13,721 bases of DNA. Source: a virus. The stretch is taken from UHGV virus genome UHGV-0121712, one strand, 5' to 3'. The notes under the pieces are model-generated. The model made no database searches and was not told where the DNA came from. It saw nothing but the letters and a program-made list of their open reading frames with translations. The number at the start of each line of letters is the position of its first letter. Positions within the stretch are counted from its first letter, which is position 1. The position numbers and the translations under genes are program-made. Below are positions 1-13,721 of this stretch, one piece after another.

Positions 1-660
1 CGATAATTCCAAGCATCATAATAACCCTGACCCTATCCAGCAATTATGTTTGGAAAAAGAAAGTGGGTTATCACCGTCGTTCAGTGGCAGAAACGGCGAT
101 GGTCAAAGCGCTAAACCAGATGACCGTGCTGGGTATGCCGGACAGCGTCCGCATCGCATAACGGGTGTTCCGGTAGGCGTCATCCTGTCTACTAACTCGG
201 GTTTATTCAATAAACTCCATAAAATTATTATGGTTACAGCCAATCTCGGGCAATGCACGTTGGAGTTGTTAGCATTTTTCTCCAAAGAAGGTATATTAAA
301 ACAGCATGATTAACCATTGTTCAACAAGGCTTGGCCAACCATTAAACTCCACCGTTCTGCTATCATTAATAATGTGCGTGATAGTATCGGAAACTCTATA
401 TGAAGCATAGCAACCACCATCATCAATCGATAGCTATTACCCTGTCTATTTTTCTGATTTCATCAGAATGCCCCCGTGGTATGTGATACAATGTTAAAAT
501 CTTCTTAACACCAATACGCCCTCAAGGAGTAATTGATTGAATTTATTACCTTTATTAGCAAATCTCACTTCAACTAATTTAAGCTCCGTTGTTTTAACTT
601 CGATTCCAGAAGGCATTGCTTTACTACACTCTTAACACTATCATTGCTCGCTATTTTGAA

Positions 661-1866
661 ATGATGAGGTTCAATAAATTGGAACAAAAAAAGAACAGAA
701 TCCTTTATTTTGATGGGTTACGCGGACTAATGGCTATAATTGTTGCTTATGGTCATTTTTTTGGTGAAACAAAGCTTTTTATGCTTTCACACTACCCAGA
801 GGCATTCCCTTATTGGCTTTCAAAATTCTACGAATTTACTGAAACGACACCATTCGTATTCACTATCAATGGTAATTTTGCTACTATAGTTTTTTTCATC
901 TTATCTGGCGCAATTCTTCTTGGCGCCTTCAAAGCAAATACAACATTTATAGCATCATTAATACGTCGTTTTATTCGACTTGGTGTTCCTGTATTTGCTT
1001 CCTGTATTATTGGATATATCTTAGTAAAATCTGGATTTCGTTATGATCACGATGAAAATGTAGCTTTCGATGAAGTAATAAAGCAAGGCATTCTTACGCT
1101 ATATACCACAGATTTTTCAACTAGATTTCTTAACCCTGTAATATGGTCAATGTCGACTGAGTTTATGGGCTCGCTGTTACTATTAATTGTTGTTCAGGTA
1201 GGAAGAAATAATTCAAGGCATGGCATTCTTTTATTATTTTTATTTACTATCTTTAGTTACGGATATTATGTGTTTTTTCTTCTCATTGGCGCATGGATAT
1301 CCATCTTGTTTGCCGACGAAAAAACAAGCAATTTATTTAACAACAAAGAAAAACACGTTATTACTTTGCTAATGATATTAGCTATAGTGATACTTCAAAG
1401 TTGCCCGGCATTCTATCCCTGGGGTTGGATTTTTATACCAGGGAACTATTTTGTTGCCCCATTAATAAACATGCAAGACTTATCGATTCCTGGGATGTTC
1501 CCTTACCACCCATACGAGTTTTTACGTGGTGTCGGTGCAATATTATTGCTAATTCTAGTAATATCCAGAGGATACATTCGCGATTTCCTATCCACTAAAC
1601 TTGTTCAATTTTTTGGGAAAATTTCTTTCTCTTTATACCTTGTTCACTGGTTAGTTCTTTCATCTGCAATAATGCCAATAAACCTATATGTATATATTCA
1701 TACAAATAACGTTTATTTAGCATACATTGCTTCCTTTTTAGTATTCGTCACTCTTTCTTTAATTGGTTCAATGATATTTTATCAATTAATAGAGAAAAAA
1801 TCAGTGATACTTAGCCGTACCGTAGGAAAAACCCTAGATAATTTTATCAGTAAAGCAAAAATATAA
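661..1866 (+). CDS. Integral-membrane acyltransferase, acyltransferase family 3 (OafA/Oac-like); likely O-acetylase of a surface polysaccharide
   Basis: 401-aa ORF from the first ATG (listed ORF starts at an upstream TTG at 616). N-terminal RILYFDGLRGLMAIIVAYGHF motif typical of acyltransferase family 3, many hydrophobic segments, strongly AT-rich codon usage unlike neighbouring genes, followed by an intrinsic terminator. Confidence 0.8.
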   Translation: MMRFNKLEQKKNRILYFDGLRGLMAIIVAYGHFFGETKLFMLSHYPEAFPYWLSKFYEFTETTPFVFTINGNFATIVFFILSGAILLGAFKANTTFIASLIRRFIRLGVPVFASCIIGYILVKSGFRYDHDENVAFDEVIKQGILTLYTTDFSTRFLNPVIWSMSTEFMGSLLLLIVVQVGRNNSRHGILLLFLFTIFSYGYYVFFLLIGAWISILFADEKTSNLFNNKEKHVITLLMILAIVILQSCPAFYPWGWIFIPGNYFVAPLINMQDLSIPGMFPYHPYEFLRGVGAILLLILVISRGYIRDFLSTKLVQFFGKISFSLYLVHWLVLSSAIMPINLYVYIHTNNVYLAYIASFLVFVTLSLIGSMIFYQLIEKKSVILSRTVGKTLDNFISKAKI

Positions 1867-2084: not shown

Positions 2085-2252
2085 TCAACCTACGGCATGC
2101 TGAGGGAATTGCTTCCAAAAGTTTGTCAATCTCTCATCAGATTCATCAACTTCCCCCAAAAACTGGTAGTAATCCGGGTCTGCCGGGGATGCAAAAACAG
2201 AGACAATTTCTGTTTCTTTCTCATCAGAGAACTGCACATATACTGTTGACAT
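2085..2252 (-). CDS. Small protein at the tail-fibre assembly chaperone (gpG) position, possibly a truncated remnant
   Basis: Short ORF directly downstream of the tail-fibre gene. Coordinates use the internal Met (MSTVYVQF...); the listed ORF extends to 2327 but then overlaps the fibre gene by 58 nt. Much shorter than typical chaperones. Position-based call only. Confidence 0.3.
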   Translation of the reverse strand: MSTVYVQFSDEKETEIVSVFASPADPDYYQFLGEVDESDERLTNFWKQFPQHAVG

Positions 2253-2269
2253 TAATACCCCCCATGCCC

Positions 2270-3424
2270 CTAAATGGTATAACCATTGATACCAATGGTT
2301 GCCGTTGAAACTGCAGGTGTTGTCCATGAGAATTGGTAATAGATATTCTGGACAACAGGTAGTTGCATTTCGAAGTAGATATCGGTGCCAATGGCACCTG
2401 TTGTTCCGGCATAAGCCTGGAAGAAACCAACTCCGTTGCTATCTGATGCCATTACTAGCGTGGCCGCCCCGGCTCCGGCTCCTGAATTACAGAATGCATA
2501 ACCTGAGCATGATATGGCATTCTGCGGAACTGCTGCGCTCAATCCTATTGGGGCATATCCACCTGGGTTGCTGCTTGTGTTCAGCACGTCCACGCGCGGG
2601 ATGCAAAATTTTCGACCTCGCTGGTACCCATTCAGAAGCAAAGAGCCGCTTGTTGTTCTCCAGACGGATACGAGTGCGCTCGCCGTATATCCCGCTGGCA
2701 TGTTTGCACCGCCGTAGACTGTGGGCGCAACGACGGTTGTCGTGTTAACACCAAGTAATGCTGAGGTGTTGGTCGTTGGGTTGTAAATAAGGTAAATAGC
2801 AACCCAACCACTGGCAGGGGCTGCTCCTGTATCCATCCCGCCCGCCCCAGTCGTGGTGAGGTTGATAGTTTCGCTTACCGAACTTACACGGTACTGCTTG
2901 CCAGATAATGACTCACCAACAATAACCTGGTCAGCGGTGAATGTTGCTGATGCCGACGCTATTGCCACGCTCATTTTCTGGTTAACAGCCTGACCAACCA
3001 CGCCGGTGAATGATTCTCGCATCTTGAGGTAATCACTTAGCGGCGACCACCCAGCTGAAGAAGTATTAGGGTCGTTTGTGTTGTTGTTGATAGTGCTGAT
3101 ATAAATCGTTGCGCCGTCATCACTGATGAGAACAGCTCCAAGAGGATACCCTCCAACCGCCGTTGAAAAATCTGAGTCAAAAGCATTAAGAGCGCCTGCG
3201 CTAGACCATCTGCAAAGGGAAGACAACTCATACAAGATTTGATTCATGTCCTGCCCTTTGGGAGGAAGGCCCCCGGCAGATTTCAAAATCATTGTTATTG
3301 GTGGGAATCCTAAATCGTAGGATGCTGTATTATCTCCAGCTGGAGTTGTCGGCAGAAGATCCTCTCTTTGACCATTTACTCCAAAAGGTTTTGGTTGTTT
3401 TTTGGGTGAGTCAGAGCGATTCAT
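2270..3424 (-). CDS. Tail fibre protein (P2 gpH position)
   Basis: 384-aa ORF starting 2 nt after the upstream gene. N-terminal region (GFPPITMILKSAGGLPPKGQDMNQILYELS...) resembles tail-fibre N-terminal anchor domains as I recall them; C-terminal half is Gly/Ala/Thr/Ser/Asn-rich like receptor-binding fibre tips. Confidence 0.7.
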   Translation of the reverse strand: MNRSDSPKKQPKPFGVNGQREDLLPTTPAGDNTASYDLGFPPITMILKSAGGLPPKGQDMNQILYELSSLCRWSSAGALNAFDSDFSTAVGGYPLGAVLISDDGATIYISTINNNTNDPNTSSAGWSPLSDYLKMRESFTGVVGQAVNQKMSVAIASASATFTADQVIVGESLSGKQYRVSSVSETINLTTTGAGGMDTGAAPASGWVAIYLIYNPTTNTSALLGVNTTTVVAPTVYGGANMPAGYTASALVSVWRTTSGSLLLNGYQRGRKFCIPRVDVLNTSSNPGGYAPIGLSAAVPQNAISCSGYAFCNSGAGAGAATLVMASDSNGVGFFQAYAGTTGAIGTDIYFEMQLPVVQNIYYQFSWTTPAVSTATIGINGYTI

Positions 3425-8387: not shown

Positions 8388-9266
8388 TCAGTAGTTATGT
8401 ACTGAAGGAGGTAATTCTTTATTCTTAAGTCTCATCCATGCGGAAAGATTCGTTGGTCCGTCTGGCTCATTGATATCAACATCTCGTGTGTGATTGATTA
8501 AAACGTCTCTCGCTATATCGATAATACGGGAGAACTCATAACCGCAGTCATGACATCTGCCGGAATAGTTCGATTGAATTTGTTTTAATGCCGGATACAG
8601 TTCGCGGAATAATGCCTGTGAACGGTTGGCATAATCCCATAACCATACAAGGCTGTTTGCTTCTTTTGCAGAAATCTCGTTGGTTTTCTTCTCTTGTTTG
8701 CCGATGAACTCACCTTCAAGCACTACCCTGTGGATGTACTCTACGGCCAGCGGGATTTGTTCAATTGAAAGTTCATCAATGCTGTCAATACCAAAACGCT
8801 GATGAACCATATTGTATGCATCGTCATAGCGAAGTCCTTTCTTTCCTACCAGCATGTTTACTGCATCGCGTAGCGGTGTTCTTTCCTCAACAGTGGTTTT
8901 CTTTCCTTTTACATACTCGCCATGTTTGCGAATTGAAGGCAGAACTTCTGCTGTTACCCACTTGCGGAATTTGTGTGGGACTGAACCTTTATTGACTGCA
9001 TCGCGGCAGCGCAGAACCAATGTATACATACCTGATTCGCTCACAATGCTTAGATTCTGCTCACCACCAAGGGTGTAACTTAAAGTTACTCCCTTTTCAT
9101 CGTCATCAAGTGCAGTAAGCGCCTTGCGTGAGTTAGTCAAAGCTAAAGCATCACAAACATCTTTAGCTACAAACCACGGCTCGCCGCACTTGTTAATGAC
9201 GCGAATTTCACTGTCGCCAAATTTGAAGATGGTGAAATCGTTTTGTGCCTTTGCTATACTTTTCAT
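8388..9266 (-). CDS. Antirepressor-like protein with N-terminal Bro-N domain
   Basis: 292-aa ORF. N-terminus ([14 protein letters not shown]...[16 protein letters not shown]) is a Bro-N-type motif; sits directly downstream of an Arc-like gene, as ant does in the P22 immI region. Confidence 0.7.
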
Positions 9267-9337
9267 GTCAATATTTCCCGATCAGATTTGTTGATGTAGA
9301 AGCCTCGCCAGTTCCCGCTGTCGGGGCTTCGTTATTT

Positions 9338-9484
9338 TTAGAGAGCATTCCGCATTTTCTCCCGGTACTTCAACCACCAAGCAAGTCCCTGAACCAACAC
9401 TGAGTTTTCTGACATCCCCTCTTCCTTGGCGATGCGTTTCACCTCCTCCTTAAAACGGTACGGATACCGATAACCGCGAGGCAT
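9338..9484 (-). CDS. Arc-family ribbon-helix-helix repressor
   Basis: 48-aa ORF (not in the six-frame track; decoded codon by codon): MPRGYRYPYRFKEEVKRIAKEEGMSENSVLVQGLAWWLKYREKMRNAL. Aligns in pattern with P22 Arc (PQFNLRWPREVLDLVRKVAEENGRSVNSEIYQRV): beta-strand, helix A, G-x-S-x-N-S turn, helix B. Weak RBS. Confidence 0.55.
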   Translation of the reverse strand: MPRGYRYPYRFKEEVKRIAKEEGMSENSVLVQGLAWWLKYREKMRNAL

Positions 9485-9591
9485 CGACTAATCTCGTTAG
9501 CAACGCGCATGAAACCATCTTCGGTATCTGCCACGCGATGCTCCACGACCTCCAGTTGAGGCCTGTAATCAGCTAACTTAACGACGCCCAT
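9439..9591 (-). pseudogene. Truncated N-terminal remnant of an O-like replication initiator
   Basis: ATG with strong AGGAG RBS. First ~34 codons (KLADYRPQLEVVEHRVADTEDGFMRVANEI) align with the lambda O N-terminus (KILNFGRGNFAGQERNVADLDDGYARLSNML) as I recall it; the frame then runs out of register into the arc gene and stops. No rest of O and no P follow. Confidence 0.4.
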
Positions 9592-9739
9592 GTTTCACTC
9601 CTGCTTTGGCTAGTCTGTAAACACCAACAAGGCGCTCTGCGAACGCCCTGTTATTTGCTGCGGCTACCACTAATCCCTCAGGTGAATCAGGGTGTCGAAT
9701 CTCTTCTTTTTCCTGGTATTTCTTACGACGTTTTGTCAT
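9578..9739 (-). CDS. Small basic protein between cII and the O remnant
   Basis: 53-aa ORF (MTKRRKKYQEKEEIRHPDSPEGL...) with RBS context ATCCACAGGAGTAATTATGAC, which I recall as the lambda O initiation region; its stop overlaps the start of the O remnant. Confidence 0.35.
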   Translation of the reverse strand: MTKRRKKYQEKEEIRHPDSPEGLVVAAANNRAFAERLVGVYRLAKAGVKHGRR

Positions 9740-9773
9740 AATTACTCCTGTGGATTGATCCAGTCTTTCTACA

Positions 9774-10052
9774 TCAGGCCTCGAAGAATTCGCCGTTCTT
9801 CGGGGCTTTTTCTTTTGTCAGCATTCTGGCTACTTTCTTAGCCAGTTCCGCCAACTCCTCGTCTTCAACACCCCATTCAAGAACAGCCAGAAGCATTCCC
9901 ATTTTGGGGATGAAGCTATCTTTCCATCGCGAAATTTGCGATTCATTAATCCCTAACGCGTCGGCAACCTTTCGCTGACCACGTACAGCAATTCGATTCA
10001 GGATGTTGCTTGTAATTGCATTCGCTTTCTTGCGAGTACTTGTAAGTTGCAT
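9774..10052 (-). CDS. cII: CII-type lysogeny activator (non-lambda allele)
   Basis: 92 aa from Met MQLTSTRKK...; conserved SQISRWK and MLLAVLEWGV motifs shared with lambda CII; upstream leader AAGGAAATACTTACATATG is lambda-like. Confidence 0.85.
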   Translation of the reverse strand: MQLTSTRKKANAITSNILNRIAVRGQRKVADALGINESQISRWKDSFIPKMGMLLAVLEWGVEDEELAELAKKVARMLTKEKAPKNGEFFEA

Positions 10053-10131
10053 ATGTAAGTATTTCCTTAGATAACAATTGATTGAATGTATGCAAATAAA
10101 TGCATACACCATAGGTGTGGTTTAATTTGAT

Positions 10132-10163
10132 GCCCTTTTTCAGGGCTGGGATGTGTAAGAGCG
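10132..10163 (-). promoter_or_regulatory. nutR (boxA CGCTCTTAC and boxB GCCCTGAAAAAGGGC on the minus strand)
   Basis: Reverse complement of 10155-10163 is the boxA consensus; 10132-10146 is the boxB hairpin; located between cro and cII as in lambda. Confidence 0.7.
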
Positions 10164-10171
10164 GGAATGTC

Positions 10172-11524
<1,353 letters not shown>

Positions 11525-11574
11525 TCCCCACCTCGATTTCGATAACCAAAAAACAAACTATTTTCCGTTTAAAA

Positions 11575-11647
11575 ACAATGGAGTTTGTTTTTCACGCCCC
11601 TTTTTACAATATTTATTGTTTACAACATACAATCTTTCTTGTAATTT
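11575..11647 (+). promoter_or_regulatory. 434-type left operator (three sites) with candidate PL promoter
   Basis: ACAA-N6-TTGT sites at 11575-11588, 11606-11619 and 11629-11642; candidate -35 TTTACA (11619-11624) and -10 TAATTT (11642-11647), 17-bp spacer, reading toward N. Confidence 0.8.
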
Positions 11648-11688
11648 TAAGCCATCAGCAGGACGCACTAACCACCATTGAAGGTGAG

Positions 11689-11718
11689 GCTCTTAAAAAT
11701 TTAGCCCTGAAGAAGGGC
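11689..11718 (+). promoter_or_regulatory. nutL (boxA GCTCTTAA, boxB GCCCTGAAGAAGGGC)
   Basis: boxA-like at 11689-11696; boxB hairpin at 11704-11718 matches the lambda nutL boxB as I recall it; lies between PL and N. Confidence 0.8.
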
Positions 11719-11986
11719 AGCATTCAAAGCAGAAAGCTTTGGGGTGTGGTGAAGCCAGCTAGTCACTGGTAAGTGCTTACCTACTGTTGAGCGGTGAAGC
11801 GCTCCCAACGCTAGCAATAGCGTGGACGAGATGGGGAGCCGCGGGCGATAAGGCCGCCATAACGCGCACGTTGTCGCATGGAAAAATCGCTGGGGTGCCG
11901 GTTATACCCCTCCGAATGAGACTCAACAAGCTGGAGCTAGACTACCAGCCACCACACCACCAAAGCTAACTGACAGGAGAATCCAG

Positions 11987-12121
11987 ATGGATGCACAAAC
12001 ACGCCGCCGCGAACGTCGCGCAGAGAAACAGGCTCAATGGAAAGCAGCAAATCCCCTGTTGGTTGGGGTAAGCGCAAAACCAGTTAAAGGTATTCGCGAT
12101 AAAGGTAAATATCGGCAATAA
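11987..12121 (+). pseudogene. N: Truncated antiterminator N (first ~33 codons lambda-like, then unrelated tail and stop)
   Basis: MDAQTRRRERRAEKQAQWKAANPLLVGVSAKPV matches the lambda N arginine-rich boxB-binding N-terminus; it continues KGIRDKGKYRQ-stop instead of NRPILSLNRKPK..., giving 44 aa versus 107 in lambda N. Confidence 0.8.
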
Positions 12122-12197
12122 ATAACAATCCTCGCACTCGCGGGGATTTCTTTTATCTGAACTCGCTACGGCGGGTTTTGTTTTATGGAGATGATAA

Positions 12198-12365
12198 ATG
12201 CACTTCCGAGTCACAGGTGAATGGAATGGAGAACCATTCAACAGAGTTATCGAAGCAGAGAACATCAACGACTGCTATGACCACTGGATGCTGTGGGCGC
12301 AGATAGCACATGCAGACGTAACCAATATTCGAATTGAAGAACTGAAAGAACACCAAGCCGCCTGA
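12198..12365 (+). CDS. Small hypothetical protein immediately upstream of xis (55 aa)
   Basis: ATG to TGA ORF (MHFRVTGEWNGEPFNRVIEAENINDCYDHWMLWAQIAHADVTNIRIEELKEHQAA) ending 39 nt before xis; I believe lambda has a 55-aa ORF at this position, from memory. Confidence 0.55.
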   Translation: MHFRVTGEWNGEPFNRVIEAENINDCYDHWMLWAQIAHADVTNIRIEELKEHQAA

Positions 12366-12380
12366 TGGCGGTTTTTTCTT
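12357..12380 (+). terminator. Candidate intrinsic terminator between the small ORF and xis
   Basis: GCCGCC / TGAT loop / GGCGGT followed by TTTTTTCTT, overlapping the end of the 55-aa ORF. Confidence 0.45.
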
Positions 12381-12404
12381 GCGTGTAATTGCGGAGACTT
12401 TGCG

Positions 12405-12623
12405 ATGTACTTGACACTTCAGGAGTGGAACGCTCGCCAGCGACGCCCAAGAAGCCTTGAAACAGTTCGTCGATGGGTACGCGAGTGCAGGATATTCCCT
12501 CCTCCGGTTAAGGATGGAAGAGAGTATCTGTTCCACGAATCAGCGGTAAAGGTTGACTTAAATCGACCAGTAACAGGTAGCCTTTTGAAGAGGATCAGAA
12601 ATGGGAAGAAGGCGAAGTCATGA
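12405..12623 (+). CDS. xis: Excisionase, lambda Xis
   Basis: 72-aa product MYLTLQEWNARQRRPRSLETVRRWVRECRIFPPPVKDGREYLFHESAVKVDLNRPVTGSLLKRIRNGKKAKS matches lambda Xis as I recall it; its 3' end overlaps int by 23 nt as in lambda. Confidence 0.95.
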   Translation: MYLTLQEWNARQRRPRSLETVRRWVRECRIFPPPVKDGREYLFHESAVKVDLNRPVTGSLLKRIRNGKKAKS

Positions 12624-13671
12624 GCGCCGGGATTTACCCCCTAACCTTTATATAAGAAACAATGGATATTACTGCTACAGGGACCCAAGGACGGGTAAAG
12701 AGTTTGGATTAGGCCGAGACAGGCGAATCGCAATCACTGAAGCTATACAGGCCAACATTGAGTTATTTTCAGGACACAAACACAAGCCTCTGACAGCGAG
12801 AATCAACAGTGATAATTCCGTTACGTTACATTCATGGCTTGATCGCTACGAAAAAATCCTGGCCAGCAGAGGAATCAAGCAGAAGACACTCATAAATTAC
12901 ATGAGCAAAATTAAAGCAATAAGGAGGGGTCTGCCTGATGCTCCACTTGAAGACATCACCACAAAAGAAATTGCGGCAATGCTCAATGGATACATAGACG
13001 AGGGCAAGGCGGCATCAGCCAAGTTAATCAGATCAACACTGAGCGATGCATTCCGAGAGGCTATAGCTGAAGGCCATATAACAACAAACCCGGTCGCAGC
13101 CACTCGCGCTGCAAAATCAGAGGTAAGGAGATCAAGACTTACGGCTGACGAATACCTGAAAATTTATCAAGCAGCAGAATCATCACCATGTTGGCTTAGA
13201 CTTGCAATGGAACTGGCTGTTGTTACCGGGCAGCGAGTTGGTGATTTATGCGAAATGAAGTGGTCTGATATCGTAGATGGATATCTTTATGTCGAGCAAA
13301 GCAAAACAGGCGTAAAAATTGCCATCCCAACAACATTGCATGTTGATGCTCTCGGGATATCAATGAAGGAAACACTTGATAAATGCAAAAAGATTCTTGG
13401 CGGAGAAACCATAATTGCATCTACTCGTCGTGAACCGCTTTCATCCGGCACAGTATCAAGGTATTTTATGCGCGCACGAAAAGCATCAGGTCTCTCCTTC
13501 GAAGGGGATCCGCCTACCTTTCACGAGTTGCGCAGTTTGTCTGCAAGACTCTATGAGAAGCAGATAAGCGATAAGTTTGCTCAACATCTTCTCGGGCATA
13601 AGTCGGACACCATGGCATCACAGTATCGTGATGACAGAGGCAGGGAGTGGGACAAAATTGAAATCAAATAA
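12601..13671 (+). CDS. int: Tyrosine integrase, lambda Int
   Basis: 356-aa product beginning MGRRRSHERRDLPPNLYIRNNGYYCYRDPRTGKEFGLGRDRR and ending ...DDRGREWDKIEIK, matching lambda Int as I recall it, including the catalytic-region HELRSLSARLY and HLLGHKSDTMASQY motifs. Confidence 0.97.
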   Translation: MGRRRSHERRDLPPNLYIRNNGYYCYRDPRTGKEFGLGRDRRIAITEAIQANIELFSGHKHKPLTARINSDNSVTLHSWLDRYEKILASRGIKQKTLINYMSKIKAIRRGLPDAPLEDITTKEIAAMLNGYIDEGKAASAKLIRSTLSDAFREAIAEGHITTNPVAATRAAKSEVRRSRLTADEYLKIYQAAESSPCWLRLAMELAVVTGQRVGDLCEMKWSDIVDGYLYVEQSKTGVKIAIPTTLHVDALGISMKETLDKCKKILGGETIIASTRREPLSSGTVSRYFMRARKASGLSFEGDPPTFHELRSLSARLYEKQISDKFAQHLLGHKSDTMASQYRDDRGREWDKIEIK

Positions 13672-13721
13672 TGATTTTATTTTGACTGATAGTGACCTGT
13701 TCGTTGCAACAAATTGATAAG
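13668..13721. other. attP P' arm (partial): three Int arm-type binding sites; core lies beyond the window end
   Basis: The 3' terminal sequence is the reverse complement of the lambda P' arm as I recall it; arm-type sites ATAATGATTT (13668-13677), ATTTTGACTG (13679-13688) and ATAGTGACCT (13689-13698) correspond to P'3, P'2, P'1. The window stops about 20 bp short of the core. Confidence 0.85.

Follow-up and report, generated by a model that had tools for sequence, protein, structure and literature searches.

The window, by which we mean the whole 13,721-nt stretch of the UHGV virus genome UHGV-0121712 that was analysed, carries a 44-aa open reading frame (ORF) at 11987–12121 between a lambdoid immunity region and an orf55-xis-int module. 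The ORF is on the plus strand, which corresponds to the direction of lambda leftward (PL) transcription. The features of this part of the window were as follows.

9774–10052, minus strand: cII, identical to cII of phage HK446.
10132–10163, minus strand: nutR, with boxA CGCTCTTA at 10163–10156 and boxB GCCCTGAAAAAGGGC at 10146–10132.
10172–10387, minus strand: cro, identical to HK446 cro.
10491–11123, plus strand: cI repressor gene, full length (210 aa), with one substitution relative to HK446 cI.
11120–11524, plus strand: Sf6 gene-38-like ORF downstream of cI, with no Pfam match.
11618–11644, plus strand: PL promoter, at the position annotated in phage HK446 and among 434-type operators read from the sequence.
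11688–11718, plus strand: nutL, with boxA GGCTCTTA at 11688–11695 and boxB GCCCTGAAGAAGGGC at 11704–11718.
11987–12121, plus strand: N' pseudogene, comprising N codons 1–33 (11987–12085), then 11 out-of-frame codons from the tail of an ASCH-domain gene and a stop codon at 12119–12121.
12077–12087, plus strand: junction zone AAACCAGTTAA, with the break at N nt 100–101 and the junction at about 12085–12087.
12088–12125, plus strand: last ~36–38 nt of the ASCH-domain gene, the right-hand parent of the deletion, with its own stop at 12123–12125.
12127–12155, plus strand: intrinsic terminator tL4 (9-bp stem and T run, −13.1 kcal/mol), annotated in the HK022 and 434 records.
12159–12186, plus strand: second terminator-like hairpin with a T run (−11.0 kcal/mol), also found in lambda, 434 and HK022.
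12198–12365, plus strand: orf55, with one substitution relative to lambda.
12355–12380, plus strand: terminator-like hairpin preceding xis, placed like t'I of the phage 434 record.
12405–12623, plus strand: xis, full length, with one substitution relative to lambda.
12601–13671, plus strand: int, full length, with four substitutions relative to lambda.
13672–13721, plus strand: P' arm of attP/attL, followed in a sister contig (L008) by the att core and the ybhC-side attB arm.

The genes on either side of the 44-aa ORF were well preserved. The cI, cro and cII genes, a small ORF after cII, the Sf6 gene-38-like ORF, orf55, xis and int were all full length, and the retained early genes differed from those of functional phages by 0–4 amino acids each. 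We take cI and cro to be of the 434 type, from recognition of their sequences. Both nutL and nutR, which an earlier sequence-only reading of this DNA had described as retained, were found with boxA as well as boxB. The boxA of nutL has one mismatch to that of lambda, which reads CGCTCTTA (lambda boxA consensus, CGCUCUUA; PMC2724277). The nutL region of the window was 98% identical to the Sf6 and HK446 leaders.

The 44-aa ORF translates as MDAQTRRRERRAEKQAQWKAANPLLVGVSAKPV followed by KGIRDKGKYRQ and a stop codon (full product, MDAQTRRRERRAEKQAQWKAANPLLVGVSAKPVKGIRDKGKYRQ). Residues 1–33 were 100% identical to N of both lambda and HK446, and the last 11 residues were unrelated. The peptide matched the Pfam family N36 (E = 7.4e-25, aligned residues 2–33), as well as the N36 peptide of the boxB RNA structure 1QFQ and the N protein of three antitermination complexes (5LM7, 6GOV and 5MS0). 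[quoted passage not shown] Compared to the 107-aa N protein of lambda, the product shares residues 1–33 and the presence of cognate nut sites in the PL and PR transcripts (nutL and nutR, downstream of the two promoters), but it diverges after residue 33 and lacks residues 34–107, including the central NusA-binding region (~34–47) and the C-terminal RNA-polymerase-binding region (73–107), in place of which 11 unrelated residues have been added. A full-length N encoded in another frame had been named as a finding that would overturn this picture; N residues 34–107 gave no match in any frame of the window (tblastn, E up to 10), and therefore no full-length N is hidden elsewhere in the window.

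Region boundaries in N are reportedly at residues 1–22 and 34–47. Three parts of the protein make contacts, namely an ARM at the N terminus that binds RNA, a middle part for NusA and a C-terminal domain (residues 73–107) for RNA polymerase, and deletion of residues 73–107 from lambda N reduced read-through from 38% to 7% (PMC3526286). Because its NusA-binding and RNA-polymerase-binding parts are missing, the stub should not antiterminate, which supports, by way of these domain maps, the earlier statement that the element cannot make functional N. The stub would keep only the ARM, and so would be expected to bind boxB RNA without being able to recruit NusA or RNA polymerase. An ARM-only peptide may nevertheless have a weak local effect near a nut site, by analogy with the observation that N–nut binding without most of the RNA-polymerase-binding domain still overcomes Rho near nutR (PMC3526286). 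Judged by its sequence, the 44-aa stub appears to be a fragment of the N family and not a working member of it, and the ORF would be better labelled in annotation as an N pseudogene than as an antiterminator.

We compared the window with lambda in order to define the endpoints of the deletion and any microhomology, as had been proposed. Relative to lambda, 29362..35259 (5,898 bp) was missing, and in its place were 34 nt of non-lambda sequence (12088–12121) belonging to the ASCH tail; the window was collinear with lambda from 12122 onward. The claim that the whole PL-operon interval of lambda is missing, with the sequence running straight into the 55-aa ORF, xis and int, was therefore confirmed. 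In intact relatives (phage Huey, a prophage of E. coli MLI114 at att-lambda, and lambda), the distance from N to xis was ~6.0–6.9 kb. The left end of the deletion lies at N codon ~33, as the sequence-only reading had it, but the right end, which had been placed in the region upstream of xis, is not lambda sequence and falls inside the tail of the ASCH-domain gene.

A three-way alignment across the junction identified both parents. The left parent is an Sf6/HK446-type cI-PL-nutL-N region, identity to which (HK446, Sf6 and lambda N) runs to 12087; on the right, identity from ~12085 onward is to the 3' end of an ASCH-domain gene of 285 nt, the right parent. In phage vB_EcoP-720R6 and in many E. 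coli prophages, orf55-xis-int is immediately preceded by the ASCH gene; this gene occupies the position of lambda ea8.5 in many lambdoid prophages and is itself absent from lambda. From its sequence, the ancestor of the element would have been an Sf6/HK446-like lambdoid phage with 434-type immunity and a lambda-type int, not lambda, and for this reason the list of lost genes is given by analogy. At the junction, N reads GCA AAA CCA GTT AAC and the ASCH gene GAT AAA CCG GTA AAG GTG, both of which encode K-P-V, and the window reads GCA AAA CCA GTT AAA GGT ATT. The crossover lies within an imperfect 10–11-nt match that pairs AAACCAGTTAA in N with AAACCGGTAA in the ASCH gene, where only TA(A) is an exact match at the exchange point, and the resulting N'-ASCH fusion is one base out of the ASCH frame.

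Overall, the 44-aa ORF is very probably an ordinary N pseudogene in a decaying prophage, created by one illegitimate deletion of ~6–7 kb with loss of the PL delayed-early operon. Such a deletion would have removed the rest of N and the entire PL delayed-early operon from a prophage at att-lambda, and the crossover at the short imperfect match would have placed the last ASCH codons out of frame behind N codon 33. The exact junction was absent from 5,426 complete E. coli genomes, 50,697 phage records, the GTDB species representatives and IMG/VR, and matches in phages and complete E. coli genomes all stopped on one or other side of it. Neither this allele nor its junction is thus represented among annotated phages or complete genomes; the junction was recovered only from metagenome assemblies, by an exact-protein look-up.

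The ASCH stop is followed at once by the tL4 hairpin, the stem of which is identical to that of tL4 in the HK022 and 434 records, with one difference from HK022 in the loop; tL4 is carried by lambda too. With the following hairpin and the one after orf55 (−14.6 kcal/mol for the stretch 12345–12385), this makes three terminator-like hairpins, each with a T run, in the interval from the N' stop to xis. A TTGC-N6-TTGC sequence at 12379–12392, 3' of the hairpin at 12355–12380, is presumably the cII site of PI. An Rfam scan of 9000–13721 gave three matches, all below the gathering score and none related to N or nut. An rsmX-like Rfam match over the tL4 hairpins was rejected as noise (21 bits, threshold 56). 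Upstream of the stub, no second promoter-like site was found between 11525 and 11986 in a consensus scan, and PL was its only upstream promoter.

Because the ORF sits behind cI-repressed PL, and the cI gene is intact, the stub should not be made in a lysogen. Upon derepression, most PL transcripts would be expected to terminate at tL4 or at the hairpins behind it, and therefore little xis or int would be expressed from PL. Derepression would also no longer kill the host, because N, kil and O have been lost along with all that lay downstream of O in the ancestral phage. In classical lambda genetics, survivors of induction need such losses, and a non-lethal remnant would be the kind that selection leaves behind; the part that remains useful to the host, if any, would be the 434-type immunity. 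The disappearance of N, the PL operon, O and the late genes would represent a routine step of decay that yields a harmless remnant keeping its repressor and integrase.

An alternative explanation of the retained ARM is that the 44-aa peptide was selected as an ARM-only decoy, which would exclude superinfecting lambda-N phages, as Nun does, by occupying boxB on their transcripts. The ARM is indeed intact and matches the boxB-binding N36 peptide, and residues 1–28/33 were kept in many independent alleles. Nun is expressed from the repressed HK022 prophage; the stub, unlike Nun, appears to have no lysogenic promoter, since PL was the only upstream promoter and the scan of 11525–11986 revealed no other. 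Both proteins have an ARM that recognises lambda boxB, and passages on Nun in PMC4124055 and PMC5386594 describe it as blocking N through its own ARM on boxB and arresting RNA polymerase through its C-terminal region. The stub has no equivalent of that region, as its tail consists of 11 frameshifted ASCH residues, a by-product that is different in every allele. Furthermore, the exact 44-aa protein occurred on only five metagenome contigs in an exact-protein look-up of ~15 billion proteins, which is not the pattern of a spreading beneficial gene. We therefore consider a selected decoy very improbable, and interference of the stub with the N protein of a superinfecting phage is unlikely because the stub sits behind a repressed promoter.

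The view of the element as a decaying prophage was reinforced by the other side of the immunity region, where it is broken a second time.

8388–9266, minus strand: ant, the 5' end of which faces a sar-like match.
9439–9591, minus strand: O' fragment, ~35 codons of the replication initiator O followed by out-of-frame sequence.
9470–9489, no strand assigned: second illegitimate junction, at which O homology ends at 9489 and myovirus-like prophage homology starts at 9470, with 18 nt of filler between.

Beyond the filler, the sequence continues inside a ylcI-like gene and then through ant and the baseplate and tail-fibre genes of a myovirus-like prophage to an acyltransferase gene, and no P, Q, lysis, head, sheath or tube genes were found between O' and the host gene yfdC. 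The second junction was also present in L008, L010 and L011. Because it cuts O and joins it to the tail module of another phage, the element is a grounded prophage remnant of natural origin, from an E. coli lineage, and not a laboratory construct. It fits the well-known class of defective lambdoid prophages, having an early region with int at a bacterial att site (seen in L008 and in the Int protein beside ybhC) and having lost its lytic functions (N and O truncated; P, Q, lysis, head, sheath and tube genes absent). The element had been called domesticated or decaying; decay stands, with O cut and the replication, late, lysis and head genes gone, and domestication found no support. An Rfam sar RNA match at 9268–9334 (plus strand) was below threshold (28.5 bits, threshold 43, E = 0.011) and is antisense to the 5' end of ant, which we take to be where the Sar antisense RNA of phage P22 acts on ant.

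The 44-aa protein was carried by five contigs, which matched the window at 100% identity except for 11 SNPs in the tail-fibre gene. These SNPs distinguish L008 from the window and all fall within 71 nt (window 2872–2942), a clustering that suggests a gene-conversion patch. L008, a 36.6-kb human-gut contig, continues from int into the P' arm, the att core and the ybhC side of att-lambda (attL), and the exact Int protein of the window was very common beside ybhC (att-lambda) in many genomes. L010, a 200-kb contig 100% identical to the window, continues from the acyltransferase gene into yfdC, mlaA, fadL, fadI and fadJ. The far end is the attR-side end of a different prophage family beside yfdC; no lambda attR was seen, and the two flanks are on separate contigs, the int-side flank (attL, ybhC...pgl) in L008 and the acyltransferase-side flank in L010 and L021.

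In K-12, the sequences that flank the remnant map 1.66 Mb from each other (ybhC at 0.806 Mb, yfdC at 2.465 Mb) and in inverted order. This arrangement could be explained by an inversion that had its ends in two prophages and was roughly symmetric around the terminus. Alternatively, it may reflect recombination or an assembly crossover in a ~900-bp stretch (window 2100–3001), which was common to the prophage family resident at the yfdC site. At the prophage end beside yfdC lies a gene of the Acyl_transf_3 family (616–1866, plus strand), followed in L010 and L015 by a further ~1.1 kb, and an IS5-family transposase remnant is annotated at this spot in E. coli 720632. No tRNA gene was found in L010, although argW is nearby in K-12.

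We also considered whether the junction could be an artefact, either of chimeric metagenome assembly or of a laboratory construct made at the HpaI site of N. The break lies inside GTTAAC, which we take to be the classical HpaI cloning site of N, whose blunt cut was used in PL vectors, and the window is of metagenomic source. In addition, the 90% protein cluster of the natural stub has just one further member (P0002), and this is an engineered PL-N'::T7 RNA polymerase fusion. Sequences of this kind in public sequencing runs (L017 and L018) carry lambda cI, rexA, rexB, PL and an N' cut at HpaI, followed by T7 RNA polymerase. Engineered PL-N' fusions at HpaI include the pKC30-type vectors. In both the engineered fusion (L017) and the window, N is cut at codon 33/34 and PL-nutL-N' drives what follows. 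The engineered fusion, however, is broken bluntly at GTT|AAC and has foreign genes as well as lambda cI, rexA and rexB; the window retains GTTA(A), continues into natural prophage sequence and is a natural chromosomal prophage. Its N leader and early region are of the Sf6/HK446 type and not those of laboratory lambda. Moreover, the junction was present in separate assemblies from different projects and assemblers, within chromosomal contigs of 36 kb and 200 kb, and short-read assemblers do not join sequences through a 3-nt match. An artefact is thus extremely improbable, even more so than a selected decoy.

The deletion that produced the pseudogene was one of many with a left end in this part of N. 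A protein search with the stub, which covered targets of ≤76 aa and thus under-sampled later breaks, returned at least 51 clusters of short N36-bearing ORFs, mostly from E. coli. At least 16 alleles diverged exactly after V33, 3 after N34 and at least 7 after V28, and their right-hand partners all differed; at least 19 alleles with different partners broke at nt 100–102. Their continuations included host DNA and the in-frame C-termini of Ral, Gam, a Kil-like protein and a DUF551 protein. At the DNA level, ends of the form ...CCAGTTA| (nt 100) were verified for five alleles (the window, L040, L041, L042 and L056) and ends of the form ...GGGGTA| (nt 84) for two (L053 and L164); further loci in the set were L043, L264 and L265. 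We considered whether these alleles might be insertions, but the 3' part of N was absent from all these loci, which makes them deletions or replacements. A right-hand parent was found for seven alleles with DNA other than the window (L040, L041, L042, L056, L053, L164 and L184). TA immediately preceded the junction in the right-hand parent in six of the seven, and in L184 it was inside a TAAGCG microhomology; the parents overlapped at these junctions by 2–6 nt.

Samples that were seeded upstream of the site are less biased. Among IMG/VR loci seeded on N nt 31–54, 2 of 120 were truncated, at nt 84 and nt 100, and among metagenome loci 1 of 74 was truncated, at ~nt 88, for a combined 3 truncations in 194 N-bearing loci. 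In the 5,426 complete E. coli genomes, N nt 61–130, 101–170 and 171–240 each matched 719–720 places, and the only partial copies by these counts were two 3'-retaining fragments that started at nt 95 and nt 99, giving a rate of roughly 0–2 events per 720 N copies. A higher count for N nt 31–100 (915 places, compared to 719 for nt 101–170) does not reflect ~196 truncated copies, as the additional places come from a 31-nt match within the thrW remnant of O157:H7.

The stretch of N from nt 55 to nt 324 contains 11–14 TA steps, the first two of which are those at nt 84 and nt 100 (window 12070 and 12086), leaving 9–12 others, and the two sites share a motif that reads G(G/T)TA^A(G/C)CGC. Microhomology was rejected as the cause of the hotspots, since a microhomology model assigned only 0–6% of junctions to these two sites. 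A conservation boundary was also rejected, because diversity was flat from nt −20 to ~260 across 140 distinct alleles. To our knowledge, and on comparison by eye, none of the Chi-like, Int core-type, dif/Xer, invertase, integron core, IS5/IS630, type I-E PAM or several restriction sites convincingly fits both hotspots, and a literature search for an illegitimate-recombination hotspot in N returned nothing relevant.

These observations raise the question of whether the deletion began at random or with a sequence- or structure-specific break at a fragile TA step (nt 99–100, in GTTAAC) that was then joined to a downstream TA. We regard the latter as about equally likely to be true or false. It would change the origin assigned to the deletion and make the window one case of a recurrent event, and its product would be the same. 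In its favour are the repeated ends at V33, N34 and V28 with unrelated partners, the TA at or just before the right-hand ends, the positions of the truncations and partial copies in the less biased samples, the poor fit of the microhomology model and the flat conservation profile. Against it, no nuclease or structure was found that would account for such a break, the events are rare, and the size limit of the protein search favoured early breaks. Other breakpoints also occur in N (one at nt 61, in O157:H7, and several from codon 57 onward), and selection for keeping residues 1–28/33 or for losing residues 34–47 could contribute to the clustering.

The broader proposal is that nt 83–84 and nt 99–100 together form a sequence-specific fragile site, where breaks join to arbitrary downstream or upstream TA steps, inactivate N and ground the prophage, with the window as one product. 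We put this forward tentatively, as somewhat less probable than its converse. Such breaks might be made by a nuclease or by a transposase-like activity specific for TA, or they might depend on replication or structure. If the recurrence reflects a specific mechanism, it would be a preferred route by which E. coli disarms lambda-type prophages and would offer a tractable model for illegitimate recombination at defined sites. The N truncation in itself is ordinary prophage decay and the breakpoint hotspot is modestly interesting; the wider point, beyond one remnant, is that the same breakpoint recurs in unrelated prophages.

The closest described analogues of the element are the O157:H7 thrW remnant and the other natural N' alleles. 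The lambda-like remnant at thrW (L266, RIMD 0509939; ~195 complete genomes) keeps cI, cro and cII, with N cut at nt 61 and joined to an integrase gene truncated at its 5' end, and its record annotates the N'-integrase fusion only as a partial integrase. Like the window, it retains its immunity region and has lost the PL operon through a deletion from inside N towards int. It differs in that its break is at nt 61 and not nt 100, in that its deletion extends into int, so that xis and part of int are lost, and in its att site and immunity type. The natural alleles cut at codon 33/34 (for example P0003/L040, P0016/L041, P0013/L042 and L056 from IMG/VR) have the same ...CCAGTTA| left end, a partner TA and the same loss of the 3' part of N, but each has its own right-hand partner (an early-region gene, a DUF551 gene or the host csc/dsd region) and their backgrounds differ.

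Species-representative genomes with an N 24-mer (L239–L263) were mostly unrelated (Marinifilum, Limosilactobacillus, Shewanella, Pseudomonas and others). The matches were located on short or ~48-kb low-coverage contigs, and the N 24-mer in these assemblies looks like lambda DNA contamination.
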